A stretch of 64,000 nucleotides of DNA from an uncultured Rhodospirillaceae bacterium (GTDB lineage Bacteria > Pseudomonadota > Alphaproteobacteria > CAAGCB01 > CAG-977): positions 787-64,786 of the forward strand of contig URSF01000008.1 of NCBI GenBank assembly GCA_900550445.1, written 5' to 3'. Made by a program: the position numbers and the translations under genes. This document shows positions 44,378 to 62,596 of this stretch, one piece after another. Below the pieces are notes generated by a model. That model was not told where the DNA came from. It ran no database searches and saw only the letters and a list, made by a program, of their open reading frames with translations. How positions within the stretch are numbered: position 1 is the first letter of the stretch; the number at the start of each line of letters is the position of its first letter.

Positions 44378-44391
44378 TGGGAGATTGATCA

Positions 44392-44721: not shown

Positions 44722-44726
44722 TGAAA

Positions 44727-47074: not shown

Positions 47075-48128
47075 TGCACCCTCTCAATTCAGCGCTTTTA
47101 ATGCGCCCGTGAATTTTGAAATACTTTCCTTTACGCCCGCAGGGACAATTGTCAATACCTAAAATTTCACCTTCATCTTCGGTTAATAAAACGTGACCGG
47201 GGTACGATGTAGGCAAAACGGATAATAATTCCATCAGCCCTTTTTCTCCGATATCGGCGGAACTGAAATCTTTGGGACGGCGAATAATTACGTCGGAATA
47301 ATTGGAACAGTGCATATGCCCGTGTTCGCATTCGACAAAAACGGATCCAAGTTGTTCCGCCATTCCGTAGTAATTATAAACTTTGACATTTCCTAATCTT
47401 GCTTGCACACGGCGGTTAAATTCCAAAGCGTCAACCGCTTGGTCTTTTAATTTTTTCCAACCGCCGATATGAAATAAAACGGCGTTTTGCGCATTGAATG
47501 AGATATTTTTTTCTTCCAAAGCGCGAACAACAAACTGCCAAATCATATACGTGTAGCCGAACATTAAAATCGGTTCGTTTTTGTGTTCTTCAAAAAAAGA
47601 GGAAACCTTCTCAAGATCAATATTCATTTCGGCGTCCAAAGCGTAAGTGCTGTTACGCCCGAAAATCGAAAAACCGATAATGCCGGCGCCTCTGGCGGAA
47701 TACATCGACCGGTCTTTTTTTATCATTTCCGTGTCCAGCAACAATAAAGGCAAACGCTGTTTGCCGATAAACGAAGAGATAATCTCATTGAGTGTTTTGC
47801 TTTGAGCTCGAACGTTATCCGCGCTTAAAAAAATCTTGGACACAGCTTGACCGGACGTCCCTGACGAAGTCAGTGTCTTTGTGATTTGTTCTTGAGGAAC
47901 GGATCGTAATTCAAACTCTTTAAACAACCGGACGGGAATAAAAGGAAGCTCTGCACAGGTATGATTTTTTGACGCATCGAAAGACAAAGCGTTTAATATC
48001 CGAGCGTATTCGGGACAGTTGGCGTAATGCCAATGTGTCAAATCCGATAGGATTTCAGACAAAGCCCGTTCTTTTTGAGAAGCTCCAAGCGAATAAGGAG
48101 CCAATTGAAACAAATCATTCAACGTCAT
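47052..48128 (-). CDS. LuxE-like acyl-protein synthetase (adenylate-forming)
   Basis: 358 aa. TSSGTSGQAVSKIF P-loop-like motif, HWHYANCPEYARIL N-terminal block, and C-terminal C..CGRKGKYFKIHGR. Confidence 0.7.
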   Translation of the reverse strand: MTLNDLFQLAPYSLGASQKERALSEILSDLTHWHYANCPEYARILNALSFDASKNHTCAELPFIPVRLFKEFELRSVPQEQITKTLTSSGTSGQAVSKIFLSADNVRAQSKTLNEIISSFIGKQRLPLLLLDTEMIKKDRSMYSARGAGIIGFSIFGRNSTYALDAEMNIDLEKVSSFFEEHKNEPILMFGYTYMIWQFVVRALEEKNISFNAQNAVLFHIGGWKKLKDQAVDALEFNRRVQARLGNVKVYNYYGMAEQLGSVFVECEHGHMHCSNYSDVIIRRPKDFSSADIGEKGLMELLSVLPTSYPGHVLLTEDEGEILGIDNCPCGRKGKYFKIHGRIKSAELRGCSDTYEKR

Positions 48129-48765
48129 GACTTACCTCTTTAATAAAGATATCCTGCGGTTCGGAAAAAACGGCTCCAAAAGCCGCATAAACATTCATTA
48201 CGGCAGTGTTTTGCGTACTGATACGTCCTTCTAATTTTTTATAACCGCGTTGTTTCGCAACTTTACAGGCGTTGGCGTATAAAGCCATTGCCGCTCCTGT
48301 CATGCGGTATTTTTCAGATACGGCGGCCAAATGTACAAACAGTGTATCCGCAGATGTTTCTTTCAAAGCCAAAAATCCGATCGGCAATTCTTTAAACAAA
48401 GCCACAAAAACCGCGTCTAATTCATCTACCCATTGTTTTAAAACCATTCCGGAAATATCTGTCGAACAATCGGGAAGTATATGAAAACGGCGATCATAAA
48501 CAAAAGATTCAACCGCTATTTTCAGAATATCCTCTTTGTATCGTGTCGTTTCGATAATCGGCAAACGGATAAACTTATCCAGATCCGTCTCGCATTTCGC
48601 AAGGCTGATAGCCGTTTTAACCGTTCTGTCGGCTAAAAAAAATCCTTGACGCTGATATATCGTCTCCGTTTCGGCATTTGTCGGTTTGACGATGCGCAAA
48701 ACCGAAACACCGTCGGTTTTTGTTTCATCATCGCTTATTACGATATTGCCATACGTTAAAATCAT
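48115..48765 (-). CDS. GNAT-fold acyltransferase
   Basis: 216 aa. Acyl-CoA-binding core HLAAVSEKYRMTGAAMALYANACKVAKQRGYKKLEGRISTQNTAVMNVY. Confidence 0.6.
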   Translation of the reverse strand: MILTYGNIVISDDETKTDGVSVLRIVKPTNAETETIYQRQGFFLADRTVKTAISLAKCETDLDKFIRLPIIETTRYKEDILKIAVESFVYDRRFHILPDCSTDISGMVLKQWVDELDAVFVALFKELPIGFLALKETSADTLFVHLAAVSEKYRMTGAAMALYANACKVAKQRGYKKLEGRISTQNTAVMNVYAAFGAVFSEPQDIFIKEVSHDVE

Positions 48766-50195
48766 TTATCATCTAATTCCGCATAAAGTGTTTTACCGGC
48801 ATCGTTTTTAGGAATTTCAGCCAAGTATTCAACGTGAAACGCCGTAAAATTCAAATGTGTTTTTTCCGCTACAAAAGACTGAATTTCTTTTAACTTTGTT
48901 TCGTCGGTGATAAAAATTTTCATTGCGTCGTCTTTGCCTGCGCAAGCACAATCAAAGTCCGGATAATGCGTTTTAATTAGCCGTTCCGTTTCATCAAGAT
49001 TGACGCGATTGCCGAAAATTTTTAAAAATCGCTTTTTGCGACCGACAATATAAAAATATCCGTCAGCATCGAATTTAGCCATGTCACCTGTTTGCAATAT
49101 TCCGCCGCGTTCGTCGCCTTTAATCAAATCTTCTCCGCAAACGGCATAGCCGAGTGTAACGTTATCGCCTTTATAGAGCAATTCCCCGACCGTGTCAGGT
49201 GTCGTGATTTGCTCTCCTTTGTCGTCAATCAAAGTCAGCGTGCCGCCCGGAATCGCGATGCCCATCGATCCCTTTTTCACCAAAGCTTTATCCGCCGGCA
49301 AATATGCCATGCGTGCGGTTGCTTCCGCTTGTCCGTACATGACAACGAACTTTTTTCCTTCTCGTTCAGCATATTCCGCGAATTTTTGATGCAAGTCGGG
49401 CAGGATTTTACCGCCGGCTTGGGTCATTGTCCGCAAATCAGGCAGTTTTCTGCGAAAGAACATTAGCTTGTCCAACATTTCGTAAGTATATGGCACACCG
49501 CCGAAAGAAGTCGCTTTCTGTTTCGTAAACAAATTCCAAAACTCGCGCTGCATCAATGTTGATCGAGTAAGGATAATGGTGGCTCCTACCGCAAAATGCG
49601 TATTGATAATCGATAAACCGTAAGTGTAGTTCATCGGCAATGTCGTAATCGCGCGTTCCGTTGAATCCAAGGCTAAATATTCAACGATAGATGACGTGTT
49701 CGCTTTGATGTTTTTATAGCTTTGGCGCACAAACTTGGGTGATCCCGTCGACCCAGAAGTCGTCAGCAGTAAAGCCAATTCTTCATACAACGGATAAACG
49801 TGCTCGTCTGTTCGTTTAAGCAATGAGTAGCCGTTTGAAGAATAGATGATATCCCCTGTGAAATCTTTGGTTTTGTCTGAAGGCAGCCAAAGATAATCGG
49901 GTTTGTAATGATTTAGAAAATTATTCAATAATTCTAAATCAATATGCTCATCCAACATCAACGGCACAATACCGTGATTTAAAAAAGCGATATATCCGAT
50001 CAAAGATCCGATTGTATTGGAACATAAGTTGAAAACCAAACAACGGGAAGGGATATGCGCAACCAAAGCTTTTGCCGCTTCGTCGATTTGCGCGTAAGAA
50101 AATGTTTCTTCGTTTTCGGTTACAACCGCTGTTTTATCTTTAAACTCAAGCAAATTCCACATTGTATTTTGCAAGGATTTCTTTCCCTTTTTCAT
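48762..50195 (-). CDS. AMP-dependent synthetase/ligase (ACP-loading type)
   Basis: 477 aa. LLLTTSGSTGSPKFV (A3), YGQAE, GDMAKFDADGYFYIVGRKKRFLKIFGNRV (A8). The start is uncertain because the ORF overlaps the ACP gene end. Confidence 0.9.
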   Translation of the reverse strand: MKKGKKSLQNTMWNLLEFKDKTAVVTENEETFSYAQIDEAAKALVAHIPSRCLVFNLCSNTIGSLIGYIAFLNHGIVPLMLDEHIDLELLNNFLNHYKPDYLWLPSDKTKDFTGDIIYSSNGYSLLKRTDEHVYPLYEELALLLTTSGSTGSPKFVRQSYKNIKANTSSIVEYLALDSTERAITTLPMNYTYGLSIINTHFAVGATIILTRSTLMQREFWNLFTKQKATSFGGVPYTYEMLDKLMFFRRKLPDLRTMTQAGGKILPDLHQKFAEYAEREGKKFVVMYGQAEATARMAYLPADKALVKKGSMGIAIPGGTLTLIDDKGEQITTPDTVGELLYKGDNVTLGYAVCGEDLIKGDERGGILQTGDMAKFDADGYFYIVGRKKRFLKIFGNRVNLDETERLIKTHYPDFDCACAGKDDAMKIFITDETKLKEIQSFVAEKTHLNFTAFHVEYLAEIPKNDAGKTLYAELDDK

Positions 50196-50385
50196 AGCTG
50201 TTTAAATCGACGATGTCGTCGGGTTCCAACATAATGTCGAAAGCCTCTTCAATTTGGGCGACCAACCCCATGTGACCGACAGAATCCCATGCATCAATTG
50301 CTTGAAATGTCAGGCTTTTGGCTGTTTCAGGCTCTATATCAAAAGCCTGACAAAATGCGTTGGCGTATTTTTCTTCGTTTGTCAT
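50146..50385 (-). CDS. acyl carrier protein
   Basis: 79 aa. Phosphopantetheine site AWDSVGHMGLV. Confidence 0.85.
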   Translation of the reverse strand: MTNEEKYANAFCQAFDIEPETAKSLTFQAIDAWDSVGHMGLVAQIEEAFDIMLEPDDIVDLNSYEKGKEILAKYNVEFA

Positions 50386-51362
50386 TTACAAATCTCCTCA
50401 TAAGTGTTTTTTATTTTTAAAGCAATTTTTTCGGGCGTAAGATCATGAACGTCATGCATATAAGCATACTCTCCGGCATGCGGATAAAATGGCTTCGTCC
50501 CGATTATTAAATGCGCGGGACGTTGGCTTTTTAACGCCATCGTTTCTTCAATCGCACTGCCTAATCCCCCGATTGTCGAATGTTCCTCAACGGAAACAAT
50601 CAATTTTGCATCACAGGCGGTTGTAACAGCCTGAACGTCTAAAGGCTTGATGGTATGGATATCAACCACTTTAACGGATATATCGTTTTCTTCAAGCTTT
50701 TCAGCGGCTTTTAACGCATTATGAACCATACTTCCCGTCGCCATTATGACAACATCTGAACCGTCGCGCAAAGTTATCGCTTTACCGATTTCAAAATCGA
50801 AATCTTTTTGATACACGATCGGATTATTCATTGTTCCCGACAAACGAAGGTATACGGGAGCGGAAATCTTTGCCGCCGCTTCCACGGCCTTTTCCGTTTC
50901 CAATCCGTCGGCCGGAGAAAGAATGATCATATTATTGATCGCCCGAAGAGCCGCAATATCTTCCAATGCATAATGCGTTGTCCCGAACATACCAAATGAA
51001 AATCCGGCGCCAAAACCGACCAGTTTCACATTTTCGCGCATATATCCCAAAAAGTGCCGAACCTGTTCACAAGAACGTAACGACGCAAAGTTTGAAAATG
51101 TCGCCGCAAACGGTATTTTGCCGCAAGAAGCCAGTCCGGCCGCAATTCCGATCATATTTTGTTCGGCAATTCCGGTATTATAAAAACGTTGCGGAAAAGT
51201 CTTTTGGAATCTGTCCAGTCCGGAGGTATTACATAAATCCGCCGCTAACGCGACGATATTTTCGTTTTGTTCAGCCAATCGCGTTAAGGTTGTTCCAAAA
51301 ACCCCTCTTTGCCCTAACATGGATAAAGTACGCAAATAAGAAGGTTTAATTTCCATAACCAC
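50382..51362 (-). CDS. transketolase, C-terminal (pyrimidine-binding) subunit
   Basis: 326 aa. FYNTGIAEQNMIGIAAGLA and the FGMFGTTHYALEDIA blocks. Confidence 0.9.
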   Translation of the reverse strand: MVMEIKPSYLRTLSMLGQRGVFGTTLTRLAEQNENIVALAADLCNTSGLDRFQKTFPQRFYNTGIAEQNMIGIAAGLASCGKIPFAATFSNFASLRSCEQVRHFLGYMRENVKLVGFGAGFSFGMFGTTHYALEDIAALRAINNMIILSPADGLETEKAVEAAAKISAPVYLRLSGTMNNPIVYQKDFDFEIGKAITLRDGSDVVIMATGSMVHNALKAAEKLEENDISVKVVDIHTIKPLDVQAVTTACDAKLIVSVEEHSTIGGLGSAIEETMALKSQRPAHLIIGTKPFYPHAGEYAYMHDVHDLTPEKIALKIKNTYEEICK

Positions 51363-52140
51363 CCTCCGTTATTTCTGAAATCGCCTGCGTTAGCTGTGCT
51401 TGTGTTAATTTCCCGTGATGCCATTCGCGGGCGTTTTCCATAAAAGAAACGCCTTTTCCTTTAACCGTATGCGCCAAAATGACTTTCGGTTGATTATGTG
51501 CTTGCGACAATTTGATTTTTAACGCTTGCACATCATGTCCGTTACATTCTTCAACAATCCAACCGCAAGCTTCCCACATTTTTTTTATATCAAACGTTAA
51601 AATGTCAGCGGATTTCCCATCTGCCTGCATTCCGTTCAGATCGACAATGACGGTCAAATCTTGGATTTTCCGATGACCGGCGAACATGGCACTTTCCCAA
51701 ATGCTGCCTTCGTTACATTCTCCGTCACCTAAAATGACGAAAACCCTTCTTCCCGCCAAAGCCAAACCGATGCCGTAAGACAAGCCCATACCCAGACTGC
51801 CGCCTGAAAATTCAATTCTTTTTTCAATGTTTTTTGACGGTTGTCCCGGAAAGTCGCCTCCGTTTTCTTCAAAAGAATCATAGTCTTTCTGCGAAATCAA
51901 ACCGGTTTCATACAATGCGGCGTACAAAGCCAATCCGGCATGACCTTTGCTTAAAATCAAACGATCCCGCGCTTCGTCAAAAGGATCGGATTTATTATAT
52001 TTTAATATGCCGTTATATAATGCCGTCAGTATTTCCACACATGATAAAGACGGCGCAATATGCGCGCCGTTATTACCGGCTTTAAAAGCGGACGTCAGAA
52101 TATTTTTACGCATGTTTTCAGCAAATGTCACATCTTCCAT
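51346..52140 (-). CDS. transketolase, N-terminal (ThDP-binding) subunit
   Basis: 264 aa. HIAPSLSCVEIL, SKGHAGLALYA and the ThDP motif GDGECNEGSIWE. Confidence 0.9.
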   Translation of the reverse strand: MEDVTFAENMRKNILTSAFKAGNNGAHIAPSLSCVEILTALYNGILKYNKSDPFDEARDRLILSKGHAGLALYAALYETGLISQKDYDSFEENGGDFPGQPSKNIEKRIEFSGGSLGMGLSYGIGLALAGRRVFVILGDGECNEGSIWESAMFAGHRKIQDLTVIVDLNGMQADGKSADILTFDIKKMWEACGWIVEECNGHDVQALKIKLSQAHNQPKVILAHTVKGKGVSFMENAREWHHGKLTQAQLTQAISEITEGGYGN

Positions 52141-52901
52141 TATAAACCTCCGTCTATGCGAATCACCTGGCCATTAATGAAGGACGATCTGTCCGAAGCT
52201 AAAAAAACGGCCGTGTCCGCAACTTCTTTCGGCGTGCCAAAACGTTTCATCGGCGTTAAATCTTTAGTCTTTTCCAATTCGTCAGCGGGCATCGTTTGCA
52301 AGATTTCTGTTTCAATCACACCGGGAGCAATACAATTCGATCGTATGCCTTGCGCCCCCAATTCATTGGCGATAACGCGCGACATCGCGATTAAAGCCGC
52401 CTTGGCCGAACCATATATCGCTTTCCCGGGATTCCCGTCCAATGCCGCCATGGAAGCTATGTTCACAATACTGCCGTGTCCTTGACGAACCATCAAATTG
52501 GAAATCATTTGCGTTAAGAAAAACGGCGCAAAAAAGTCCGTTTCAAAAATATCTCTCAAAGCTTTTTCTGCGGACATTTGAAACGAAGCGTTATGCATCA
52601 CGCCGGCATTGTTTATCAAAGCGTCCACCGGCAATTTTGAAGATCGAATTGATATGATCGCTTTTTTTACCGCTTCTTTGTCCGTCATATCAAAATAAAC
52701 GGGGCGAATTTCGATTTGATGTTTTACAGACAAATCCGAAACCAACTTGATAAAATCGGGCGTTTCCCGACGCGCATGAGCCCATACGGAAGCACCGTTC
52801 TCGACGCATTTTTCTAAAATGGCTTTGCCGATTCCACGATTCGTTCCCGTAATTAAAATATTTTTTCCTCTAAGCATTGTTTCCTTCCTTAAAGAAATCA
52901 A
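52140..52901 (-). CDS. SDR-family oxidoreductase (FabG-like)
   Basis: TGTNRGIG cofactor motif, NNAG, YGSAKAA catalytic YxxxK. Confidence 0.9.
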   Translation of the reverse strand: MISLRKETMLRGKNILITGTNRGIGKAILEKCVENGASVWAHARRETPDFIKLVSDLSVKHQIEIRPVYFDMTDKEAVKKAIISIRSSKLPVDALINNAGVMHNASFQMSAEKALRDIFETDFFAPFFLTQMISNLMVRQGHGSIVNIASMAALDGNPGKAIYGSAKAALIAMSRVIANELGAQGIRSNCIAPGVIETEILQTMPADELEKTKDLTPMKRFGTPKEVADTAVFLASDRSSFINGQVIRIDGGL

Positions 52902-54012
52902 TCCAATACTTGATTTTTTCTTCTCGCGTCATTTTATCCGAAGGCGTCTGATATAAACGAATCCCCCCGACATAAGTTTTAGACGTATTAACAACGCAAA
53001 ATCCCCAAGACAATCCCACACCGAATGTCGCCATACATAATGTGTTGACCGGATTATCCTTTAACTGTCTGCAAATGTCGGTCGTCACCGAAGCCGAACT
53101 GCAATTGCCATACTGTGTGAACGTTTCCGTCGACCATTTTTCCTTAGGCAGTTTGGCATACATGGCAACAGTTCGCACAATCTGTTTGTTTGCCTGATGG
53201 AACGCAAAATAATCAATCTCTTCCGTTTTTTTGCCGGCATATTCCAAAATTTCGTTAATACCGCGGGGACCGACGTCCGTTGTAAACTTAAAAACGTCCA
53301 TACCCTTCATGATATCGTCCCATAAATGCCAGACATTACCCGTGGCATCTGTGATTTCCAAAGAGGAAATATCTTCGCGCACGGGCAAATCGTAACCGCC
53401 CGCGGGCGCAATCAGCTTATCCCAATCTTTTCCGCGTGTCCCCGTATAAAAATAAGCCGTGTTTTCATCATCGGTATATTCCAATAACGTCGCGGACCCC
53501 GCATCGCCGAACAACATATTGGAATTGCGATTGCGCCGATCCGAATGTCTGCTGACAATATCGCCGGCCAAAACCAAACATTTCGAAGCGGTTTTTGCCG
53601 AAATCATCGAATGAGCCAACATTAATCCGTGAACGTAAGCCGAACAAGCCAACCCGGAAACATCAAAGCAAGTGCATTCCTCTTTTAATCCCAATCTGCC
53701 GTGCAACACGCATGCGGACGCGGGATAATGATAATCATGTGAGGCGGAAACAACGATCAAAGCGTCAATCGTATTTTTATCAATATTCAAACGCTCAAAT
53801 AAATCGTTTGCGGCGGCTTCGCATAAATCCGCGTTCGTCGTGCGTTCATCGGCCACATAACGCGTCCCCAATCCCAGAATTTTTTTATTACGTTCCAACA
53901 ACTTAAGATCATTGTTAAAGAACTCGATTTCGTCATCGATATTGATAAAATGTTCCGGAACGACAGCGGTAATGCCGGTGATTTTGACGTGCTCGAACTT
54001 GGATTTAGGCAT
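52870..54012 (-). CDS. KAS III (FabH)-like condensing enzyme, copy 2
   Basis: 380 aa. Cys in DVSGLACSAYVHG, His in FHQANKQIV, Asn in YGNCSSASV. Has a ~45-aa C-terminal extension shared with copy 1. Confidence 0.85.
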   Translation of the reverse strand: MPKSKFEHVKITGITAVVPEHFINIDDEIEFFNNDLKLLERNKKILGLGTRYVADERTTNADLCEAAANDLFERLNIDKNTIDALIVVSASHDYHYPASACVLHGRLGLKEECTCFDVSGLACSAYVHGLMLAHSMISAKTASKCLVLAGDIVSRHSDRRNRNSNMLFGDAGSATLLEYTDDENTAYFYTGTRGKDWDKLIAPAGGYDLPVREDISSLEITDATGNVWHLWDDIMKGMDVFKFTTDVGPRGINEILEYAGKKTEEIDYFAFHQANKQIVRTVAMYAKLPKEKWSTETFTQYGNCSSASVTTDICRQLKDNPVNTLCMATFGVGLSWGFCVVNTSKTYVGGIRLYQTPSDKMTREEKIKYWIDFFKEGNNA

Positions 54013-54023
54013 AAAAAAACTCC

Positions 54024-54764
54024 CTAACGACTGGCGCAGTCAACAACATAATTCTGACCGGTAATCCATTTGGCCTTATCGGACAACAAAAATACGACAA
54101 CATTGGCGACATCTTGCGGTTCGCCAAACCCCATCGGATAAAATTGACGCACTTTATCCATGATTTCAGGAATTCTTTGTGTCATGGGCGTATCTATATC
54201 AGACGGTGAAACCGTATTAAAACGAATACCCTTCGGAGCAAATTCTTTGGCAATCGCCACCATGGAGGCGACCAAAGCCGCTTTTGATCCCGAATAAGAA
54301 ATAATCGCTTTGGCCGGACGGTCGTAAGCACATGATGATATGGAAACAAAGCTGGAACCGGCACCGATGTTTACGCGTTTGTCGGCAAAGCCTTTGGCCA
54401 TCATGACGGGGGCAAAATAATTAATCTCAAACAGCTGTTTCATCGCATCAACATCTAATGCGCGCAACGGACGCGTTTCCGTTATGCCGGCGCAACAGGC
54501 GACACCTTTGAATTTACCGTATTTGTCTTTCAGCATGTTCATGAATTCAGGCAAAGCCGCAACATCTTGCGCCAAATCCTTTTGTTCGCAAAAAAACTTT
54601 TCGGGAAAAGCCGCTTTGTTCCGAACAGTATCAAGAGCTGCCGCATTACGAGCGATTCCAACAACCGTCGCTCCTTTCGCGTTCAAAGTTAATGCGACAG
54701 CTTCTCCGATTCCCGAAGAAGCCCCCGTAACAATAAAAAAATCCGTGTTATTGAAGGTAGGCAC
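54024..54764 (-). CDS. SDR-family oxidoreductase
   Basis: TGASSGIG and YSGSKAA. Paralog of 56540-57271. Confidence 0.9.
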   Translation of the reverse strand: MPTFNNTDFFIVTGASSGIGEAVALTLNAKGATVVGIARNAAALDTVRNKAAFPEKFFCEQKDLAQDVAALPEFMNMLKDKYGKFKGVACCAGITETRPLRALDVDAMKQLFEINYFAPVMMAKGFADKRVNIGAGSSFVSISSCAYDRPAKAIISYSGSKAALVASMVAIAKEFAPKGIRFNTVSPSDIDTPMTQRIPEIMDKVRQFYPMGFGEPQDVANVVVFLLSDKAKWITGQNYVVDCASR

Positions 54765-55180
54765 TACTGTTTCTCCTTTAATTGAACCAATTCGACGATC
54801 ATCGAATTACGAAACGCCAGATAACACCATGCCGCAATATCGGTATTGTCTTCGTCAACATAAGTGATCGGAACTAAAAACATTCCGCCGTTTTCTCGGA
54901 TCATTTTTTCTGCGTCGGCATTAATATCATCACTGATATAGGCAAAATGAAAAATTTTGCGCTTGGCCTGCAAATGAGGACTGACAGGCCCTTCCTTATT
55001 CAGATTAGTCACCAGTTCCAAATCAGGTTGTCCTTCCGCTTTTAAAAATTGAACCTGAATTTCCGACGACACGTCCATCCGTTTTTCCCCGTTGGGCATA
55101 TAACCGAATAAGGAAAAAAAGCCGATGTCTTTATCAATGTTTTTTGAAGCAATCCCTATATGATGCAAAGCTTTAATCAT
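54764..55180 (-). CDS. VOC/glyoxalase-fold protein (epimerase-like)
   Basis: 138 aa. LHHIGIASKNIDK N-terminal metal-ligand motif, typical of methylmalonyl-CoA epimerase/glyoxalase I folds. Confidence 0.7.
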   Translation of the reverse strand: MIKALHHIGIASKNIDKDIGFFSLFGYMPNGEKRMDVSSEIQVQFLKAEGQPDLELVTNLNKEGPVSPHLQAKRKIFHFAYISDDINADAEKMIRENGGMFLVPITYVDEDNTDIAAWCYLAFRNSMIVELVQLKEKQ

Positions 55181-55395
55181 AATCCGGCCTTTTTCGCAAT
55201 ATCTCCGATTGTTGTGACTTCATGATAATCTTTCATGGTCGTCTTGACGCCGAACGATTTTTCCAAAAAAGCCATCGTTGCCATTACGGACAAAGAATCC
55301 CATTCATCCAAATCTTCCAAAACCGTTTCGTAAGACAAATCTTCTTCTGTCTGCAAAACATCTTGCATTTCCGCCAAAAATTCTTCTTTAGTCAT
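55177..55395 (-). CDS. acyl carrier protein
   Basis: 72 aa. Phosphopantetheine site EWDSLSVMATM. Confidence 0.85.
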   Translation of the reverse strand: MTKEEFLAEMQDVLQTEEDLSYETVLEDLDEWDSLSVMATMAFLEKSFGVKTTMKDYHEVTTIGDIAKKAGL

Positions 55396-56536
55396 GTTCT
55401 TCTCCTTTAAAGTAGTTTATCCAATTCATAATTTGTTCCGATCGCGTTTTTCCGTTTTTCGGAACGGTGTAAGTTGAAATGCCTCCGTTGTACATTTCTG
55501 ATAAATCAACCGCCGCTCCGCCCCATGACAATCCGATCCCGAATGTGCAAAGAACCGTGTTTCCGATTGTTTTTCCGACAGCTTGATCACATAAAACCGT
55601 CACGACTGAATTAACCGAATTATTTGCATATCTTGAAAAGGTTTCTGTCGGTGCTTTTTCAAACGGTATTCCCGCTTTCGCAACGATCATTTCGACAATT
55701 TGTTTGTTTGCCTGATGAATGGCAAACAAATCAACGTCTTGTATCGTCCAAGCTGCGGCATTCATCGTATCCGACAATAACTTGGGAGCGACTTCCATTG
55801 TGAAATTAAAAACGTCTTCTCCTTTCATCAATCCCTGATCCGCAGTCCAAATGTTGCCGTTTCCGTCTACCACGGAAAGATCAAAGTCTTTTTTTTGGTA
55901 CGGCAAACGTTGCCCGCCGAACGGGTGGATTATTTTGTCCCAGTTCTTTCCGTCAGTCCCGGTGACGAAAAATGACTTGGGCGCTCCTTTCTCATATTTT
56001 AAAATTGTCGCGGATACGGCGTCTCCGAAAACAGGCGCTATTTTTCTGTTTTGAACCCGTATGTCATGAGCGGGATTATCTCCGGTCAACAACAAAGCCG
56101 TTTTAAAAGCTCCGGACGACATTAATCCCGATGCACACATCAAAGCATGTACATATCCGGAACAGCCCAGATTGATGCTTAAACAGGTACAGCTTTTGTT
56201 CAGTTCCAACAAACCGTGAACGATACAGGCATCGCTGGGACGCGGATAATCCGGATTTTGATTAACGAAAATCAGTAAATCTATTTCATCGGGAGAAATT
56301 CCCATTTCCTGTAATAACTTAACAGCAGCGTCTGTCGCCATATCCGTAACGGTTGTGTTTTGATCGGCAATATACCGTTTCCCGTATCCGATCATTTTTT
56401 TTGCGCGCGCCAATTTTTTTGGATTATCGTCAAAATATTCCAGTTCGTCATCAATATTGACACAGTGTTCCGGAATAACAGTTTTTATTCCTTTTATTTG
56501 AATATTTTCAAAACAAGTCGTTGTCATGACGGTCAC
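55388..56536 (-). CDS. KAS III (FabH)-like condensing enzyme, copy 1
   Basis: 382 aa. Cys in NLGCSGYVHA, His in IHQANKQIV, Asn in YANNSVNSV. Confidence 0.85.
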   Translation of the reverse strand: MTVMTTTCFENIQIKGIKTVIPEHCVNIDDELEYFDDNPKKLARAKKMIGYGKRYIADQNTTVTDMATDAAVKLLQEMGISPDEIDLLIFVNQNPDYPRPSDACIVHGLLELNKSCTCLSINLGCSGYVHALMCASGLMSSGAFKTALLLTGDNPAHDIRVQNRKIAPVFGDAVSATILKYEKGAPKSFFVTGTDGKNWDKIIHPFGGQRLPYQKKDFDLSVVDGNGNIWTADQGLMKGEDVFNFTMEVAPKLLSDTMNAAAWTIQDVDLFAIHQANKQIVEMIVAKAGIPFEKAPTETFSRYANNSVNSVVTVLCDQAVGKTIGNTVLCTFGIGLSWGGAAVDLSEMYNGGISTYTVPKNGKTRSEQIMNWINYFKGEEHD

Positions 56537-56539
56537 CCA

Positions 56540-57271
56540 TTAAAAACTGCAACAATCCAGAACGTAATTTTGTCCTGTTATCCAAGAAGCTTCTTTAGAA
56601 AGTAAAAATGCCGCCAGCTCTGCCACATCGATCGGTTCACCGAAACCCATCGGATATTGTTGTATCTGCGAATCAATATATTCCTGCGGAGATTTCGATG
56701 TGCGAATATTAGAAGGCAGAATACAGTTCATCCGAATTTTATTTTTTGCATACTCCTTAGCCATAGATTTAACGGCCGCACATAAAGCCGCTTTGCTGCC
56801 GGCATAGGCTAAGTGCCCTTTATCTGAAATATAAGCTGCGGCAGACGACAAGAAAACCATCGAAGTACCCGCACCGATATTGTTTCGTTTATCGGCCATT
56901 CCCTTAGCCAAAAAAATTGGAGCCAAATAATTAATATTCAGTGTGTTTTGTACGGTGTTTATATCTGTTATTGCCAAAGGCTGAATTGGAACAACGCCCG
57001 CGCAGTAAACCATTCCGCTGAATTTACCATATTTTTCTTTCAACTTTTTAACATAAGAGGATAAGTCTTCAATATTCGCCGTTAAATCTTTCTGCTCAAC
57101 AAAAACATTTTCCGGACGGAAGGCATTTGATTTCATTTCGTTCAACCGCCCTGTATCCCGTCCGATACCGATAACCGTTGCTCCCAGTCGATTTAGAAAC
57201 AAAGCGATTTCTTTTCCTATTCCGGAAGAAGCTCCTGTTATAATAAAGCGTTGTTTTGATGAAAATAACAT
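56540..57271 (-). CDS. SDR-family oxidoreductase
   Basis: TGASSGIG and YAGSKAA. Confidence 0.9.
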   Translation of the reverse strand: MLFSSKQRFIITGASSGIGKEIALFLNRLGATVIGIGRDTGRLNEMKSNAFRPENVFVEQKDLTANIEDLSSYVKKLKEKYGKFSGMVYCAGVVPIQPLAITDINTVQNTLNINYLAPIFLAKGMADKRNNIGAGTSMVFLSSAAAYISDKGHLAYAGSKAALCAAVKSMAKEYAKNKIRMNCILPSNIRTSKSPQEYIDSQIQQYPMGFGEPIDVAELAAFLLSKEASWITGQNYVLDCCSF

Positions 57272-57294
57272 TTAAAATAACTCTCTTTAAAAGA

Positions 57295-58395
57295 TCATAT
57301 TTTTTTTAGCATATTTTTCAGAAGATTATATTTCTTCTTGTTTTTTTTGCATTTTTTTCCAAAAGTAATAATTGAAAGAATTCTATATACAATGCTTCCT
57401 CCCTTTAATACTTTTTTTATCAGTTTTGGGTTGTTCAAAATTTGATATGTAAGTCCTTCTTCGATTGAAGACAAATCTTCTTGATCATAAGGACGATTTG
57501 ACCAGTCATAATAAGATCCTCTATTTCTTATCAATCTTTCAATTACGTCGTATTTCCCGAAATAAATAGAGGCCAAAACAATATTATGAATAATTTCTGC
57601 TCTTTTATTATCAATTTCCATGCCGAAACGTTCCTGACATTCATCTAGAAAAGCCAAAAATGTTTCTCCTCTGTGCAACCAAAAACGGTTTGTTGAAAAA
57701 GGATCACAAAGCAGCCGACCGAACCAAATACCGTTTTTTTGAACACGCCATACGGACATTTCTTTTTTTATAAATCCGAAATTTCCTTTCTGCAAATGTG
57801 ACAGGTGCATAAACCAATCACCCGGATCTATATTACGTTTCGGCCACCAGTCCTCTATTTTATCGTCCGTCCTGTTAAATCGCCAGCGATACATAATACT
57901 GGCATTTGAAATAAAGTTTTCTTGTTCCAGCAGATCTTTTAAGGTAATAACATCAGGATTCCCGGGTATTTCAGGACATTTTACTATATCCGCATGAGAG
58001 CCATCTGAAAAAACAGTTTTATGTTGATGGAAACAGCCTGCAAAATCAGGATGGGAATCTAAAAAATCAACCTGCATTTGCAGTTTATTCGGATCAGTCC
58101 AATAATCATCTCCTTCACAATTCGCAAAATATTCACAATCGACGGCTTTCCAGCTATCGGAATAATTTTCCTGAGCGTTTGTATTTACTGTTCGTAATAA
58201 TGGTTTAATAATGTCGGGATATTTTTGGGCATATTCCTTAATAATTTCCTGAGTCCCATCGGTTGAAGCGTCATCATTCACATGAACTTCAAAAGGAAAG
58301 TTCGTTTTTTGCATGACGAAACCTTCCAAGGCATCTCGAATATAATTTACTTGATTATACGTGCAGCAATTTACATAAACGCGAGGTTTGTTCAT
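57295..58395 (-). CDS. family 2 glycosyltransferase
   Basis: 366 aa. N-terminal GT-A fold with CCTYNQVNYIRDALEGF...HVNDDASTDGT and a DxD-like GDDYW. Confidence 0.85.
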   Translation of the reverse strand: MNKPRVYVNCCTYNQVNYIRDALEGFVMQKTNFPFEVHVNDDASTDGTQEIIKEYAQKYPDIIKPLLRTVNTNAQENYSDSWKAVDCEYFANCEGDDYWTDPNKLQMQVDFLDSHPDFAGCFHQHKTVFSDGSHADIVKCPEIPGNPDVITLKDLLEQENFISNASIMYRWRFNRTDDKIEDWWPKRNIDPGDWFMHLSHLQKGNFGFIKKEMSVWRVQKNGIWFGRLLCDPFSTNRFWLHRGETFLAFLDECQERFGMEIDNKRAEIIHNIVLASIYFGKYDVIERLIRNRGSYYDWSNRPYDQEDLSSIEEGLTYQILNNPKLIKKVLKGGSIVYRILSIITFGKKCKKNKKKYNLLKNMLKKI

Positions 58396-58397
58396 TT

Positions 58398-58946
58398 TTA
58401 TTCACCCCTTACCCAATTGAAAAATTTTTCTTTTTGTGAATTAAAAATATCTTTTTTCAAAATAAAATATATTTCATTTTCATCTTCACCGACAACTTCG
58501 TGTCCTGTAATTTTATGCCATCGAATGACTTTTTTATTTGTTTTCAAAACATCACACTTCTTTATTTCCATTCCCAAAACATTGAATGCGTATCCGTCAC
58601 CCAACAAGGGGGCTTCCAGCATTTCTTCTGCAGAACTGCCGTCCTGCATTGCCCAACGACCTCCCGTATAAGAAGTTCCTTCAATGTTATAAATTGATGT
58701 CATACCGATCGGTTCATGATTTTTGTTTTCAATAATAAGTAGATATTCAGATTCGCTTTCCGTGCTTTTACGGATAAACGTTTTTTGTCGTTCAATATCG
58801 TTCAACACGGCGTGACAAAAACATTTTGCTTTTTTGGGATTATTTCTTAAAGCCAACATAAATTCGGCATCTTGTTGTGTAGCCAAACGAAGATTGACAA
58901 ATTTTCCTTGTAATGTTTCCGGCTTTTGTAAAGTTTTCATTTTCAA
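58398..58946 (-). CDS. GNAT N-acyltransferase (RimJ/RimL-like), paralog 1
   Basis: 182 aa. Paralogous to 60321-60854 (GKFVNLR/GKYVNLR, SIYNI, GRWAM/GRWCM blocks). Confidence 0.75.
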   Translation of the reverse strand: MKMKTLQKPETLQGKFVNLRLATQQDAEFMLALRNNPKKAKCFCHAVLNDIERQKTFIRKSTESESEYLLIIENKNHEPIGMTSIYNIEGTSYTGGRWAMQDGSSAEEMLEAPLLGDGYAFNVLGMEIKKCDVLKTNKKVIRWHKITGHEVVGEDENEIYFILKKDIFNSQKEKFFNWVRGE

Positions 58947-59164
58947 CCTGTCAATTTATGATTCAATCGGTATCGGGGATTAAAAAATCTAAAATCCGCC
59001 GGAATAAAATTGATTCTTTTTTGAATACCGCCGTCACCCCATAACCAATCAAAAGGTCCGGCTTTTTTTCTTAACTTCAAAACCAACATTGCTGCAGTCG
59101 GGCAAGCTTGTCCCGACGAAATAACCGCATCATATTGTTTCGGGTTTTCAGACGCAAACATCAA
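58943..59164 (-). pseudogene. 73-aa N-terminal fragment of a DUF1796-like protein
   Basis: ISSGQACPTAAMLVLKLRKKAGPFDWLWG resembles the N-terminus of 62597-63352 ([14 protein letters not shown]...GLFSW), but the ORF stops after 73 codons at the GNAT start. Confidence 0.35.
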
Positions 59165-59170
59165 GCCCTC

Positions 59171-60304
59171 TCATTTTGCGTATTTTTTAACCATTTCAGC
59201 GACATATGTCACATCGTCATGTGTTAAACGCATATGCAGGGGTAACGACAAAGTATGTTCGGAAGCGTGCAAAGAATTCGGACAGGTTCCTTTGGCATAA
59301 GCGTACATTTTGTATTCAGTGTTATCACGATAATGAACGCCAGGGAAAATGCCGACTTCATTCAAAGAAAGCAATAATTCGTCTCTGTTTTCAACTAAAA
59401 TCTGATATAAATGACGTGAGGATTCACAATTTGGAGCGCACGGAATAGAACGAACTTTGTTGCAGTTTTCAAAGGCTGCATCATACCAACCAGCCATCGT
59501 GCGGCGATAAGCATTATCTCTGTCCAAATATTTTAATGAAACCAAACCGATTGAAGCCATTATAGAATTACCGTGATCTTTATGTCCGATATATTCAACA
59601 TCGTATTTCCATTTATATGCACCGCCGCCGGCAGATCGAGCAAAAGTATCTTTGTTAATACCCAGCCATGATTTTTTACGCACAATTTCATCATTTTCGG
59701 CGTCTTTAAAACAGATCATACCGCTATCGCCTGTCGGACAATTTTTAACAGCCTGATATGAATATATAATAACATCGGCATCTGTTCCGGGCAAAGAACC
59801 GTCCGTATAGCGTGTTCCCGCCATATGAGCCGCATCCAAAATTAGTTTTAAACCCCGTTCTTTACAAATTTTTGCAATATCGGCGTAGCGTCTGGTATTT
59901 CCGCCTAAACCAACGAACATAACGGCCTTTGTTTTGGCGGTAATTCGTTCTTCAACGGATTTCGGGTCTAAACACAGGTATTCGTCAACATCTGCAAAAA
60001 CGACTTTCATCTTGTTATATAAAATAGCATGATTCGTCGAAACGAATGTCATTGGTGTCGATATGATTTCGTCACCGTCCTGCCAACCGTTTTGTTCTTT
60101 TAAAACATTAACAGCCAAGTCTAATCCGACAGTTGCGGAATTTAAATAATGAGCATGGGGCAAACCAGTATATTCTTTCCATTTTTCTTCCAACTGAATG
60201 GTTTTAAAACCTAATCCGGTCCATCCTTTTTCTAAGCATTCTCGAATTTCTTCTAAACATTCTTCTGTTCTGAAAGTAGGAACAAACAATTGAATTTGTT
60301 TCAT
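59171..60304 (-). CDS. DegT/DnrJ/EryC1-type PLP-dependent sugar aminotransferase
   Basis: 377 aa. Candidate PLP-Lys in YSYQAVKNCPTGDSG. DAAHMAG block. Confidence 0.9.
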   Translation of the reverse strand: MKQIQLFVPTFRTEECLEEIRECLEKGWTGLGFKTIQLEEKWKEYTGLPHAHYLNSATVGLDLAVNVLKEQNGWQDGDEIISTPMTFVSTNHAILYNKMKVVFADVDEYLCLDPKSVEERITAKTKAVMFVGLGGNTRRYADIAKICKERGLKLILDAAHMAGTRYTDGSLPGTDADVIIYSYQAVKNCPTGDSGMICFKDAENDEIVRKKSWLGINKDTFARSAGGGAYKWKYDVEYIGHKDHGNSIMASIGLVSLKYLDRDNAYRRTMAGWYDAAFENCNKVRSIPCAPNCESSRHLYQILVENRDELLLSLNEVGIFPGVHYRDNTEYKMYAYAKGTCPNSLHASEHTLSLPLHMRLTHDDVTYVAEMVKKYAK

Positions 60305-60320
60305 TTTTTTCTCCTTTTTT

Positions 60321-60854
60321 TTATAAAAGGTCTAAAAACCGCTGTTTGTTTTGATTAAACATGTCACGCGTCATTTCAAAAAAGATATCTTCTTTACCTT
60401 CTTTGATATAACGAGTTCCCCATATTTCATGGTAGCGCAGTACTTTTTTATTGTTTTTTCGGACGTCATAGTAATCTTTACGCAAATTCAGAACGTTAAA
60501 AGCGTAGTTCCATCCGAGAATAGAGCTTTCCAGAACTTCTTCCGGTAAAGAATGTTCAACCATACACCAACGACCGCTGGTAAATTCATCTTCATGAATA
60601 TTATATATGGAAACTGTCCCCAAAGGCGTTCCGTCTTTGCGTTCTATGATAAAATAGTATTCATTGTCCAAAGTCAGATATCGTTTGATATAATCAATTT
60701 GCTTTTGTAAATTATTTTCTGTTTTATGAAGAAATTTTACCGCTTTACCTGTAGTGCGCAGCTGCAAGATAAAAGCCGCGTCGTCAATGGTTACTTCGCG
60801 CAGATTAACGTACTTTCCTTCGATCGGTTTGAAATCATGCGTATTTTTAATCAT
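60321..60854 (-). CDS. GNAT N-acyltransferase, paralog 2
   Basis: 177 aa. See 58398-58946. Confidence 0.75.
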   Translation of the reverse strand: MIKNTHDFKPIEGKYVNLREVTIDDAAFILQLRTTGKAVKFLHKTENNLQKQIDYIKRYLTLDNEYYFIIERKDGTPLGTVSIYNIHEDEFTSGRWCMVEHSLPEEVLESSILGWNYAFNVLNLRKDYYDVRKNNKKVLRYHEIWGTRYIKEGKEDIFFEMTRDMFNQNKQRFLDLL

Positions 60855-61713
60855 GAAGTTCCTCGTTTAGAAAAGTTTGATAATCCCGTATGTAATCAGC
60901 TTCGCTGTAATAATCAGACGCCAGAACCAGCAATACGCAATCTGATGAAAAGTCGTGCATTTCCCGCCAGACAAGACCTTCAATAAACAGTCCCTTTGCC
61001 GGATGATCCAGTAAAAATTCTTCTGTTTTATTTTTGTACTCGCATTTGATTTTTACGCCGCCGGAAACGGCGATCAAAAGCTGCTTTAAATCCCGATGAG
61101 CGTGTTTGCCTCGAGACACACCTGTTTTTGTGTCAAAGATATAATAAACGCGTTTGACGTTAAACGGCAGATTTTTCCCGTTTTCCAATGCAATCAATGA
61201 ACCGCGATCATCGCCATGAACGTCTAAGGACATTAAAGAGACTTTGGGGGCAGTTTTCTTTTGAGAAAATTGAATTGTATTGCCTATGACAACCGCATCG
61301 GCAGGAACGTTTTTCGTAACAACGGATCCGGCGCCGATAATTGAATTTTCCCCGATTGTTAATCCGGGAAGAATGGTCGCGTTCGCGCCGATCGACGCCC
61401 CTTTTTTTATCAAAGTCCTTTCTAACAGAAAGTGACTGTTACCGGAACGGGGATATCTGTCATTGCAAAAAGTGACGTTTGATCCGATAAAAACGTTGTC
61501 TTCCAATGTAATGCCGTTCCACAACTGAACGCCGCATTTGACCGTTACGTTGTTGCCGATCAAAACGTCATTTTCTATAAAACAATGCGAACAAATATTA
61601 CAGCCCGAACCTATCCGCGCATTTGGCAAAACGACGCAATATTGCCAGATCTTAGTGCTGTCCCCAATATTTTCAGATTGAACATCTGACAAAGAATGGA
61701 TGAAAATACTCAT
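60847..61713 (-). CDS. bifunctional hexapeptide N-acetyltransferase / sugar 3,4-ketoisomerase (FdtC-FdtA, WxcM/FdtD-like)
   Basis: 288 aa. The N-terminal left-handed beta-helix repeats end at about residue 150. The C-terminal cupin has LDVHGDDRGSLIALE...VKRVYYIFD...RGKHAHR. Confidence 0.8.
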   Translation of the reverse strand: MSIFIHSLSDVQSENIGDSTKIWQYCVVLPNARIGSGCNICSHCFIENDVLIGNNVTVKCGVQLWNGITLEDNVFIGSNVTFCNDRYPRSGNSHFLLERTLIKKGASIGANATILPGLTIGENSIIGAGSVVTKNVPADAVVIGNTIQFSQKKTAPKVSLMSLDVHGDDRGSLIALENGKNLPFNVKRVYYIFDTKTGVSRGKHAHRDLKQLLIAVSGGVKIKCEYKNKTEEFLLDHPAKGLFIEGLVWREMHDFSSDCVLLVLASDYYSEADYIRDYQTFLNEELHD

Positions 61714-62594
61714 TTTTTTCCCCGGATAAAATTACGTACTTTTTTCCATTTGGCGCGCCAACCGAAACGTTTGCACCACTGCCGCTTCCACTGCTTTTTA
61801 TATCCGTGAGTAAAGCAATATTCTTTTTCATGCTTGTAAATTTGATGATAAATTTCTAATGTTTTGGCTTTAAATTCGGGATTGGAAACTGTATTGTTTC
61901 CGTGCCAGCGATAAGAAAACAAAATTTCGGGAATATATTTATATTTGCCGATCTTGGTCAGCTGAAGATGCATATACCAATCTTCCAAAAAAATGCTTTC
62001 ATCAAATTTACCGGCGTCAAGCATCGCTTGCCTTGAATATAAATATCCGTTCGGAATGTAATTCCCTTTTAACAAGTCCGCGTAAGAACCGAACTGCGGA
62101 TGTCTGTTATCATCGGGATTGATATGCAATTCGTCTCCAAATGTTTTATAGACGGCCTGATTTTCGAGTACGATTTCTCTGTTTTTTCCCCAATAAACAC
62201 GTTTTGAATCCGCATCTATGATTTCGTTGTCTCCGACAGCCAGAACATAATCCGGATTCTTCATCAAAAAAGTGCAAAGCGTTTCTATCGCATGCGGTTT
62301 TGCAACGTCGTCAGACGCTATCGTGAAAATATATTTTCCCCGCGCCATATCTATCAATTTATTGCCGGTGATTTTTGTTCCTTGATTTTTTTGCGTTTCA
62401 AAAACGACCCTGACAAACCGTTTTTCACATTCGGGTTTCAGAGATTGCAAAATCTCAAAAGTCCTGTCTGTTGACCCGTCGTCAATGACCAGCAATTCGA
62501 TGTTTTCATAAGTCTGCGCGATAATGGAGCGGATACATTCTTCGATGTATCGTTCATGGTTGTAAGCGGATATCGTTACGGAAACCAGATCCAT
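61710..62594 (-). CDS. family 2 glycosyltransferase
   Basis: 294 aa. VSVTISAYNHERYIEECIRSI...LVIDDGSTDRT, then ASDDV. Confidence 0.85.
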   Translation of the reverse strand: MDLVSVTISAYNHERYIEECIRSIIAQTYENIELLVIDDGSTDRTFEILQSLKPECEKRFVRVVFETQKNQGTKITGNKLIDMARGKYIFTIASDDVAKPHAIETLCTFLMKNPDYVLAVGDNEIIDADSKRVYWGKNREIVLENQAVYKTFGDELHINPDDNRHPQFGSYADLLKGNYIPNGYLYSRQAMLDAGKFDESIFLEDWYMHLQLTKIGKYKYIPEILFSYRWHGNNTVSNPEFKAKTLEIYHQIYKHEKEYCFTHGYKKQWKRQWCKRFGWRAKWKKVRNFIRGKK

Positions 62595-62596
62595 GT

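Follow-up and report, generated by a model that had tools for sequence, protein, structure and literature searches.

What do fatty-acid-type condensing enzymes make when they are encoded amongst sugar genes? The question is raised by a 64,000-nt stretch of DNA from an uncultured Rhodospirillaceae bacterium (assembly GCA_900550445.1, contig URSF01000008.1, positions 787 to 64,786), hereafter the window, in which seven genes at 52140-57271 lie within a sugar-modification operon of ~24 genes and ~20 kb on the minus strand. They encode a short-chain dehydrogenase/reductase (SDR1), a β-ketoacyl-acyl carrier protein synthase of type III (KAS-A), an acyl carrier protein (ACP1), a vicinal oxygen chelate (VOC) protein, a further SDR (SDR2), a second KAS III (KAS-B) and a third SDR (SDR3). 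This gene list and order had been given in a preliminary description of the sequence and proved correct, with all seven products matched by Pfam (Table 1). N-acyl groups on bacterial amino sugars are dominant epitopes of O-antigens and flagellar glycans, and because intact condensing, ketoreductase and carrier genes stand here apart from housekeeping fatty acid synthesis (FAS) and amongst amino-sugar genes, an ACP-bound β-hydroxy or polyhydroxy acyl group is the natural reading. We give a probability of roughly 0.6 to an ACP1-based line in which two rounds of condensation and ketoreduction, without dehydration, would yield a short hydroxylated acyl group for the N-acylation of an amino sugar in a surface glycan. 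The broader proposition, that condensing chemistry of some kind feeds sugar N-acylation, appears likely.

Both condensing enzymes retain the KAS III active site

The Cys/His/Asn triad, chosen beforehand as the test on which the assignment of the two enzymes should stand or fall, was kept in both when they were aligned with FabH of Escherichia coli MG1655 (C112, H244 and N274), as was R151, which contacts coenzyme A (CoA) in that enzyme. Across the full alignment of 125 sequences, comprising glycan-locus KAS and two FabH, the three triad residues were invariant (125/125). Judged by these residues, both are KAS III-type enzymes with intact catalytic sites, predicted to perform condensation. They are 42% identical to each other and 24-29% identical to FabH, and their scores against the FabH model TIGR00747 (139.9 and 157.8 bits) fall under its cut-off of 292.1. 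FabH W32 is not kept in either enzyme, and the position of E. coli FabH Phe87, the residue that limits primer size, is occupied by Arg in KAS-A and by Tyr in KAS-B.

Both enzymes also carry an insertion of ~20 aa after FabH residue ~200, and both have the shared C-terminal extension reported earlier, although this extends ~37 aa beyond the end of FabH and not 45. Across both paralogues P357 and W370 of this tail are invariant, whilst R363, E365 and I367 are each conserved in at least 90% of sequences. The tail was found in 72 of the 125 KAS, amongst them members of the two paralogue clades as well as some single KAS-ACP-SDR units (that of locus L058, for instance, but not that of L047). In an AlphaFold2 model of KAS-B (built from a 74-sequence alignment; pLDDT 94.3) the tail was confidently predicted to form a β-strand (347-354) and an α-helix (363-375). 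The top 50 Foldseek matches of this model were all of the KAS III class, the closest being the uncharacterised Burkholderia KAS III structures 4efi and 3gwa, followed by FabH (including FabHB), BioZ and PqsD. The conserved strand and helix, both additional to FabH, define a subfamily of KAS III.

No dehydratase, enoyl reductase or malonyl transferase domain was matched by Pfam anywhere in the operon, in agreement with the preliminary description. The housekeeping genes of this genome are located on other contigs, with plsX-fabH on C25 and fabD-fabG-acpP on C7.

KAS-A and KAS-B are old partners in a recurring cassette

Loci for comparison were gathered by similarity to KAS-B, such that the sample is biased toward KAS-B-containing cassettes; 80 came from a scan of species-representative genomes and were complemented by homologue neighbourhoods and a synteny table. 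KAS trees were inferred with FastTree (124 rows) and IQ-TREE (58 rows), and a separate tree was inferred for the SDRs; all supports quoted are SH-like values, not bootstraps.

The comparison with FabH that had been proposed earlier set all glycan-locus KAS apart, with a support of 100, from FabH of E. coli and that of the genome itself. KAS-A belongs to a clade (100) whose members are the first KAS in cassettes that also carry KAS-B. The KAS-B clade (98-99) sits just upstream of the SDR3, transketolase and ACP2 genes and nearly always adjoins ACP2; where enough downstream sequence was available, its members were followed by ACP2 and an AMP-ligase, with the exception of L017, a short contig with the transketolase genes in inverted orientation. 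The KAS-A and KAS-B clades are sisters inside a group supported at 99, which also includes the second KAS of loci arranged VOC-KAS-KAS-ACP-SDR-GNAT. Duplication of the units as a recent local event is thus refuted, as KAS-A and KAS-B represent old sister clades that are paired across many phyla. The first KAS of L019, L024, L057 and L064 is a member of a 'single-unit' clade and not of KAS-A, and the cassette therefore appears modular. KAS-B homologues number in the thousands and are mostly exactly 380 aa in length.

The recurring gene order was KAS-A, ACP1, SDR, KAS-B, SDR3, a split transketolase (TK_N and TK_C), ACP2, an optional metallo-β-lactamase-fold gene, AMP-ligase, an optional GNAT, LuxE and LuxC. 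In every case this block lay amongst sugar-nucleotide and glycan genes. A canonical extended version (L098-L102) starts KAS-A, ACP1, SDR1, VOC, SDR2, KAS-B and SDR3; the window has this extended gene content, but with SDR1 relocated ahead of KAS-A. Three sister species match the window in the spacing from KAS-A to KAS-B and probably share its arrangement, since a spacing of this size can accommodate no more than one SDR between the two KAS genes. Within the genus, other species harbour a basic version without VOC (L092 and L093), whilst genome G011 has the canonical extended spacing.

Of 15 species in the genus, ~8 carry the KAS pair, as do some sister genera; in a sample of 300 other genomes from across the class it occurred only once. 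Hosts of the cassette are mostly metagenome-assembled genomes (MAGs) from the gut and rumen, assigned to the Alphaproteobacteria, Gastranaerophilales, Desulfovibrionaceae and Spirochaetia, along with one Enterobacterales MAG; simpler KAS units occur in Opitutales, Mucispirillum and Campylobacteraceae. Single KAS-ACP-SDR units were the commonest relatives found. In almost all of ~100 loci the KAS units adjoin genes for an aminotransferase, a sugar dehydratase, a glycosyltransferase or an N-acyltransferase, and neighbours of the related cassettes include an NDP-hexose 2,3-dehydratase, an aminotransferase, a Hexapep acyltransferase, GT4 and GT2 glycosyltransferases and an ABC-2 transporter. The cassette is widespread and horizontally mobile, and the window holds one version of it and no local novelty.

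There were several instances of KAS-B occurring without KAS-A, namely L015, L020 and L022. The locus L008 (7078-9254, from a MAG labelled Cellulosilyticum), which has KAS-B and lacks KAS-A and ACP1, was dropped as proof of KAS-B autonomy; a DDE transposase gene lies just upstream of its VOC gene, hence this is probably a cassette truncated by an insertion sequence.

Reductases and carrier proteins

SDR1 and SDR2 had been described as clear paralogues, and their 49% identity bears this out, whilst SDR3 is FabG-like and only 27-29% identical to either. The glycine motif (TGxxxGxG; G12, G16 and G18 of FabG) and the residues S138, Y151 and K155 are kept in all three, which as judged by these residues are intact classical SDRs. 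None reached the cut-off of the FabG model TIGR01830 (297.75 bits), for which SDR3 scored 199.7 (its best NCBIfam match), SDR2 116.8 and SDR1 100.7. SDR1 grouped (95) with the SDR encoded between ACP1 and VOC in L101 and L102, and is the probable β-ketoacyl-ACP reductase of the first KAS unit. SDR2 fell into a clade of 11 rows (99), nine of the ten other members of which are encoded directly between VOC and KAS-B; in L014 another SDR intervenes between these two genes around the SDR2-type member.

SDR3 and its relatives form a separate FabG-like clade, located between KAS-B and TK_N, and were present in 11 of the 13 transketolase-containing architectures and in none of the four transketolase-less ones. 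Because its presence tracks the transketolase, because it stands directly before ACP2 in L014 and L022, and because it matches the ACP/FabG-like/AMP-ligase/LuxE/LuxC module of known glycosylation islands (PMC7874193, PMC4875605), SDR3 probably belongs with the transketolase/Lux downstream half and not with a KAS. The preliminary interpretation is supported in part: the condensing, ketoreductase and carrier genes are intact, but the proposal that each condensation is followed by its own ketoreduction does not fit SDR3, which goes with the transketolase, and most cassettes have one SDR1/2-type reductase per two KAS.

The carrier proteins of the window are ACP1 and ACP2. The WDSLS motif of ACP1 aligns with the DSL of AcpP and includes the phosphopantetheine-attachment serine, which is likewise present in the WDSV motif of ACP2. 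With 65-99% identity across cassettes, ACP1 is amongst their best-conserved proteins. An open reading frame (ORF) of 73 aa on the minus strand (58943-59164), located between the second aminotransferase gene and a GNAT gene, was considered as a further ACP and rejected, having neither a PP-binding match nor the serine motif. It had no match in Pfam or NCBIfam and no similarity to the 251-aa protein encoded at 62597-63352.

The VOC protein

The VOC protein keeps a complete, predicted H/E/H/E metal site, the ligands H7, E55, H78 and E130 being invariant in 37 homologues. Its AlphaFold2 model (pLDDT 93.6) was most similar in Foldseek to 2qh0, a glyoxalase I of Clostridium acetobutylicum (TM-score 0.82), and then to methylmalonyl-CoA epimerases (0.74-0.80), as compared with 0.37 for the domain-swapped glyoxalase I of the E. 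coli type. The family profile likewise favoured the clostridial GlxI (8e-18) over human MCEE (3.5e-7). Methylmalonyl-CoA epimerase and glyoxalase I both abstract a proton beside a (hemi)thioester carbon, hence action of the VOC protein at C2 of an acyl thioester is reasonable, and we consider the chance that it acts at this α-carbon to be about even. A role as an epimerase, as put forward in the preliminary description, would fit the fold class of the model and is one option, not a finding.

Close homologues of the VOC protein were few (31), and every context examined was that of this cassette. Complete Lux-linked cassettes with VOC always encode a second SDR1/2-type reductase, of the SDR2 type, adjacent to VOC except in L014. 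A metallo-β-lactamase-fold gene (~230 aa) was present between ACP2 and the AMP-ligase in nine of 15 architectures without VOC and in none of the six with it, the window included. An either/or relation between these two genes is suggestive and was set aside, as the loci are too few and too related.

Proposed pathway and alternative explanations

In the pathway that we favour, the housekeeping FabD would load malonyl onto ACP1 and KAS-A would form a β-ketoacyl-ACP1, to be reduced by an SDR1/2-type reductase; this step would be the counterpart of the single KAS/ACP/ketoreductase units that give 3-hydroxybutanoyl. KAS-B would then catalyse a second Claisen condensation which, followed by reduction, would result in a short chain of the 3,5-dihydroxy type, and a GNAT (PseH- or WecD-like) or an LbH acyltransferase would transfer the ACP-bound chain to the amine of the sugar. 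VOC and SDR2 may form an optional tailoring pair, in which VOC would most likely stabilise an enolate beside the thioester through its metal, leading to epimerisation or a 1,2-shift, and SDR2 would reduce the product. SDR3 would serve the transketolase/LuxCE half, which with its AMP-ligase and ACP2 probably supplies or further elaborates the chain, such that KAS-B would link the two halves. Sequential use of the KAS pair is favoured by the composition of most cassettes (two KAS, one ACP1 and one SDR1/2-type reductase) and by the VOC-KAS-KAS-ACP-SDR-GNAT loci, which have a single ACP, reductase and transferase. A strictly sequential two-round chain on ACP1 nonetheless falls slightly short of even odds in our estimation, and priming of KAS-B from ACP2 is a tentative idea to which we attach less weight still.

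Several observations weigh against this pathway. All function beyond family membership has been deduced from sequence, and which KAS acts first cannot be read from gene order alone. The loci with KAS-B and without KAS-A indicate that KAS-B is independent of the KAS-A product, which weakens a strict order of KAS-A then KAS-B, whilst the presence of two aminotransferases and two paralogous GNATs in the window would be equally consistent with a pair of distinct acyl groups. Against the methylmalonyl-CoA epimerase model TIGR03081 the VOC protein scored 34.8 bits, far under the cut-off of 114.95. The operon furthermore lacks genes for a flippase, a polymerase and an initiating transferase, and its GT2s are soluble, without membrane segments; the target may be flagellin, lipopolysaccharide (LPS) or another glycoconjugate, and this gene content would fit cytoplasmic protein glycosylation.

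That the two KAS serve parallel lines, one of KAS-A, ACP1 and SDR1 and the other of KAS-B, ACP2 and either SDR2 or SDR3, each producing a different 3-hydroxyacyl group for its own GNAT and a different amino sugar, we regard as improbable. The window does encode two DegT aminotransferases and two PseH-like GNATs (40-42% identical), single KAS-ACP-SDR units are autonomous in many loci, and KAS-B has both its occurrences without KAS-A and its near-constant proximity to ACP2 to suggest independence. Most cassettes with both KAS, however, show one aminotransferase within the fetched stretch (L003, L006 and L098; two in L009), in the two-KAS loci that lack the Lux half there is one ACP, one reductase and one GNAT, and the sole locus with two KAS whose product is known makes one C6 chain (PMC6519341). 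It is very improbable that the set yields a free small polyketide or lipid that serves as a signal or secondary metabolite, with the sugar genes as an incidental setting. Sets of KAS III, ACP, ketoreductase and AMP-ligase do occur in small-molecule pathways, and a gene for an acyl-ACP thioesterase is found ~4 kb upstream of the operon, but it is separated from it by a two-component system and the cassette of the window has no thioesterase or cyclase inside it. The near-constant company of sugar and N-acyltransferase genes argues further against a free product, as do the genetics of Pseudomonas syringae, in which the simple unit is connected with an N-acyl group on a sugar (PMC3927599).

One or both KAS might instead transfer an acyl group from carrier to sugar in the manner of CerJ and ChlB6, for which the insertion and the tail, both absent from FabH, could be taken to speak. 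Natural-product pathways do include KAS III-like acyltransferases that act on sugars, but enzymes of this type replace the Asn or Cys of the decarboxylation triad, which is invariant here. Since the structural neighbours (FabH, BioZ and PqsD) are all true condensing enzymes, and GNAT and LbH N-acyltransferases are already encoded in the operon and in related loci, we judge this the least probable of the explanations considered.

The downstream half and the sugar genes

The genes that follow SDR3 constitute the downstream half of the cassette, and those that precede SDR1 include candidates for the synthesis and acylation of the acceptor sugar (Table 1).

Table 1. Genes of the sugar-modification operon discussed in the text
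Gene	Position in window	Strand	Family match or remark
SDR1	56540-57271	-	adh_short_C2, E 6e-37
KAS-A	55388-56536	-	ACP_syn_III and ACP_syn_III_C
ACP1 (72 aa)	55177-55395	-	PP-binding, 28.8 bits (cut-off 20.8)
VOC	54764-55180	-	Glyoxalase_4, 39.1 bits (cut-off 27)
SDR2	54024-54764	-	adh_short_C2, E 1e-43
KAS-B	52870-54012	-	ACP_syn_III and ACP_syn_III_C
SDR3	52140-52901	-	adh_short_C2, E 4e-55
TK_N	51346-52140	-	split transketolase-like thiamine diphosphate (ThDP) enzyme, whole 50382-52140
TK_C	50382-51362	-	Pfam across the pair: Transketolase_N, Transket_pyr, Transketolase_C
ACP2	50146-50385	-	Pfam; WDSV
AMP-ligase	48762-50195	-	Pfam
GNAT	48115-48765	-	Pfam; weak WecD resemblance
LuxE-like	47052-48128	-	Pfam
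LuxC-like	45890-47074	-	Pfam
GNAT	58398-58946	-	Pfam; weak PseH resemblance
Aminotransferase (DegT)	59171-60304	-	PseC/ArnB/WecE-like
GNAT	60321-60854	-	Pfam; weak PseH resemblance
LbH-FdtA fusion	60847-61713	-	NeuD/PglB/VioB-type acyltransferase and 3,4-ketoisomerase
DegT aminotransferase	start ~64433, just beyond the right end of the window	-	first operon gene
Membrane acyltransferase (O-acyltransferase)	44767-45903		last operon gene, ahead of a strong hairpin

The split transketolase was next to KAS-B/SDR3 in 13 architectures. The genes from ACP2 to LuxC (45890-50385), whose products are 51-92% identical across loci, appear from their families to constitute a module for carboxylate activation and reduction that is linked to KAS-B. 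Three loci without the transketolase (L023, L024 and L026; for instance L024:11392-15418) have four genes between KAS-B/ACP2 and the AMP-ligase, encoding a FabA-like dehydratase (162 aa), a ThDP enzyme resembling acetohydroxyacid synthase (AHAS; 592 aa), a NeuB-like aldolase (344 aa) and a metallo-β-lactamase-fold protein. The exchange of one ThDP enzyme for another suggests that the role of the transketolase is carboligation.

A more ambitious reading, which we consider doubtful, has the KAS pair join the parts of a hybrid chain-building line, a kind of pathway that has yet to be described for glycans. Here the AMP-ligase would put a carboxylic, possibly dicarboxylic, acid on ACP2, LuxE and LuxC would convert the carboxylate to an aldehyde, and the split transketolase would lengthen the aldehyde by carboligation, with the AHAS-like enzyme and NeuB-like aldolase in the variants. 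SDR3 would reduce the resulting ketol, KAS-B would take the ACP2-bound, sugar-like acyl group as starter and extend it on ACP1, and KAS-A, SDR1, VOC and SDR2 would add and tailor a further C2 unit. Were this to be true, a long polyhydroxylated N-acyl chain would be carried on surface amino sugars of many gut bacteria.

For the shorter hydroxylated acyl group of the favoured pathway, candidate acceptor-sugar and acyl-transfer genes are provided, on the strength of their family matches, by 58398-61713. In all, the operon's sugar genes encode the two DegT aminotransferases, the LbH-FdtA fusion, two PseH-like GNATs and one WecD-like GNAT, two soluble GT2s and the membrane O-acyltransferase. A gene of the GNAT3a type comes after VOC-KAS-KAS-ACP-SDR at loci L021 and L027, and one borders the cassette at L010 and L020. 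The cassette itself was found beside ABC-2 exporters or many GT4 genes in other hosts, and it therefore looks like a plug-in for different glycoconjugates.

One of the soluble GT2s (366 aa; 57295-58395, minus strand) recurs in many hosts at 33-46% identity beside KAS units or directly after LuxC (L012, L013, L023, L054, L058, L060, L063, L068 and L087), and may be a transferase specific for the acylated sugar. In this respect it is reminiscent of the conserved Fgi-1 GT2 of Aeromonas, which is encoded downstream of luxC. Two flagellin-like ORFs with conserved N- and C-termini and Ser/Thr-rich middles were identified in the genome (G000 C34:6286-8238, 651 aa, and C16:38236-39762, 509 aa), both on contigs other than that of the operon; their products are candidate acceptors if the operon glycosylates flagellin.

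Operon structure and genomic setting

The source genome is a 2.16-Mb draft of 51 contigs, estimated at 87.6% completeness. Neighbouring genes amongst the seven overlap by 1-32 nt or are separated by gaps of 3-11 nt, the largest gap being 11 nt; the start of SDR2 overlaps the stop of VOC by 1 nt. The true starts of SDR3 and KAS-A are likely the ATG codons at 52877 and 56527, respectively. A promoter and terminator scan found no signal above chance inside the operon, the sole strong hairpin being located at its end (44725-44759).

The GC content of the operon (36-44% for window positions 44000-64000) is lower than that of the genome (48%), and the operon adjoins a type I restriction-modification (R-M) island and the remnant of a phage tail fibre, which fits horizontal acquisition. 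Its flanks hold a two-component system along with the R-M and phage remnants. The upstream acyl-ACP thioesterase gene mentioned above (L002:3648-4382, minus strand) is on the same strand as the operon, and its neighbours encode a YgiW-like BOF protein and a QseB/QseC-like two-component system. The 5.1-kb region had no megablast match in any complete E. coli genome.

Comparison with known systems

A literature search found no description of the full cassette, of the linkage between KAS and the transketolase/LuxCE genes, of the VOC/SDR2 addition or of the conserved tail. To our knowledge, enzymes that make amino-sugar N-acyl groups longer than 3-hydroxybutanoyl have never been assayed, nor has any KAS of this kind. 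A general reference is the housekeeping FabH/FabG/AcpP set, with which the genes of the window share folds and catalytic residues and likely also the chemistry, namely decarboxylative Claisen condensation and NADPH-dependent ketoreduction on a phosphopantetheinyl carrier. The set in the window differs in consisting of accessory genes in a low-GC island, and its KAS in forming a separate clade with the extra insertion and the C-terminal strand and helix.

The downstream half has its own counterpart in an ACP/AMP-ligase/LuxE/LuxC module, of which rfbK-O of Vibrio cholerae O1 is presumably a relative. This module, including a FabG-like gene, is found in flagellin glycosylation islands of Aeromonas group II and of enterobacteria (PMC7874193, PMC4875605). 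ACP2, the SDR3-like reductase, the AMP-ligase, LuxE and LuxC of the window thus have equivalents inside other glycan loci, where they are thought to tailor the acyl substituent, but those islands lack KAS III, ACP1, VOC and the split transketolase.

The first KAS unit resembles two simpler systems. In P. syringae, deletion of vioR from the vioS/vioR/acp/vioB set results in loss of N-(3-hydroxybutanoyl)viosamine (PMC3927599), and the flagellin glycosylation island of P. aeruginosa PAK includes a KAS/ACP/ketoreductase unit, orfB-orfD (PMC4020848). Both place KAS III, ACP and ketoreductase genes beside those of a DegT aminotransferase and an acyltransferase, leading to an N-(3-hydroxybutanoyl) amino sugar, as supported by mass spectrometry of mutants; unlike the window they have one KAS, one reductase, no VOC and no Lux/transketolase half, and their target is flagellin. 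Transketolase and Lux genes were considered as further parts of the PAK island and dropped from the comparison, as the table of orfA-orfI names none and its only FAS-type entries are ACP, KAS and ketoreductase (PMC4020848).

The closest counterpart of the KAS pair is wfpC-G of Flavobacterium psychrophilum, in which, by predicted function, wfpC and wfpE encode two KAS III, wfpD an ACP, wfpF a ketoreductase and wfpG a PglD-like acyltransferase (PMC6519341, Table S1). The O-polysaccharide of this organism carries a structurally proven 3,5-dihydroxyhexanoyl group (PMC6519341), which is also carried by V. cholerae O100 (PMC12024518). The preliminary claim that the genes of the window exceed in elaboration what is known on amino sugars was therefore wrong, as both 3,5-dihydroxyhexanoyl amino sugars and a set of two KAS III, ACP and ketoreductase had been described (PMC6519341, PMC12024518). 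As with wfpC-G, which lies next to a sugar aminotransferase gene and has no dehydratase or enoyl reductase, the window combines KAS III, ACP, ketoreductase, sugar aminotransferase and N-acyltransferase and lacks both of these enzymes, the composition of a vioS/wfpC-type unit; a 3,5-dihydroxyhexanoyl group on an amino sugar is what two rounds of condensation and reduction would be expected to give. The Wfp KAS, of 333 and 350 aa, were likened to KAS-A and KAS-B by description and length, and at these lengths probably lack the ~37-aa tail. The Flavobacterium locus differs further in having one reductase, no VOC, none of the transketolase/ACP2/AMP-ligase/LuxE/LuxC half and a transferase that is PglD-like (LbH) and not a GNAT.

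Set beside these systems, the window is a compact and complete example of a cassette common to many gut and rumen groups. Its genes can be assigned to modules of KAS-A, ACP1 and SDR1, of VOC and SDR2, of KAS-B, and of SDR3 with the transketolase, ACP2, ligase and LuxCE, whereby the vague label of 'fatty-acid genes in glycosylation islands' becomes a set of specific, experimentally addressable parts.

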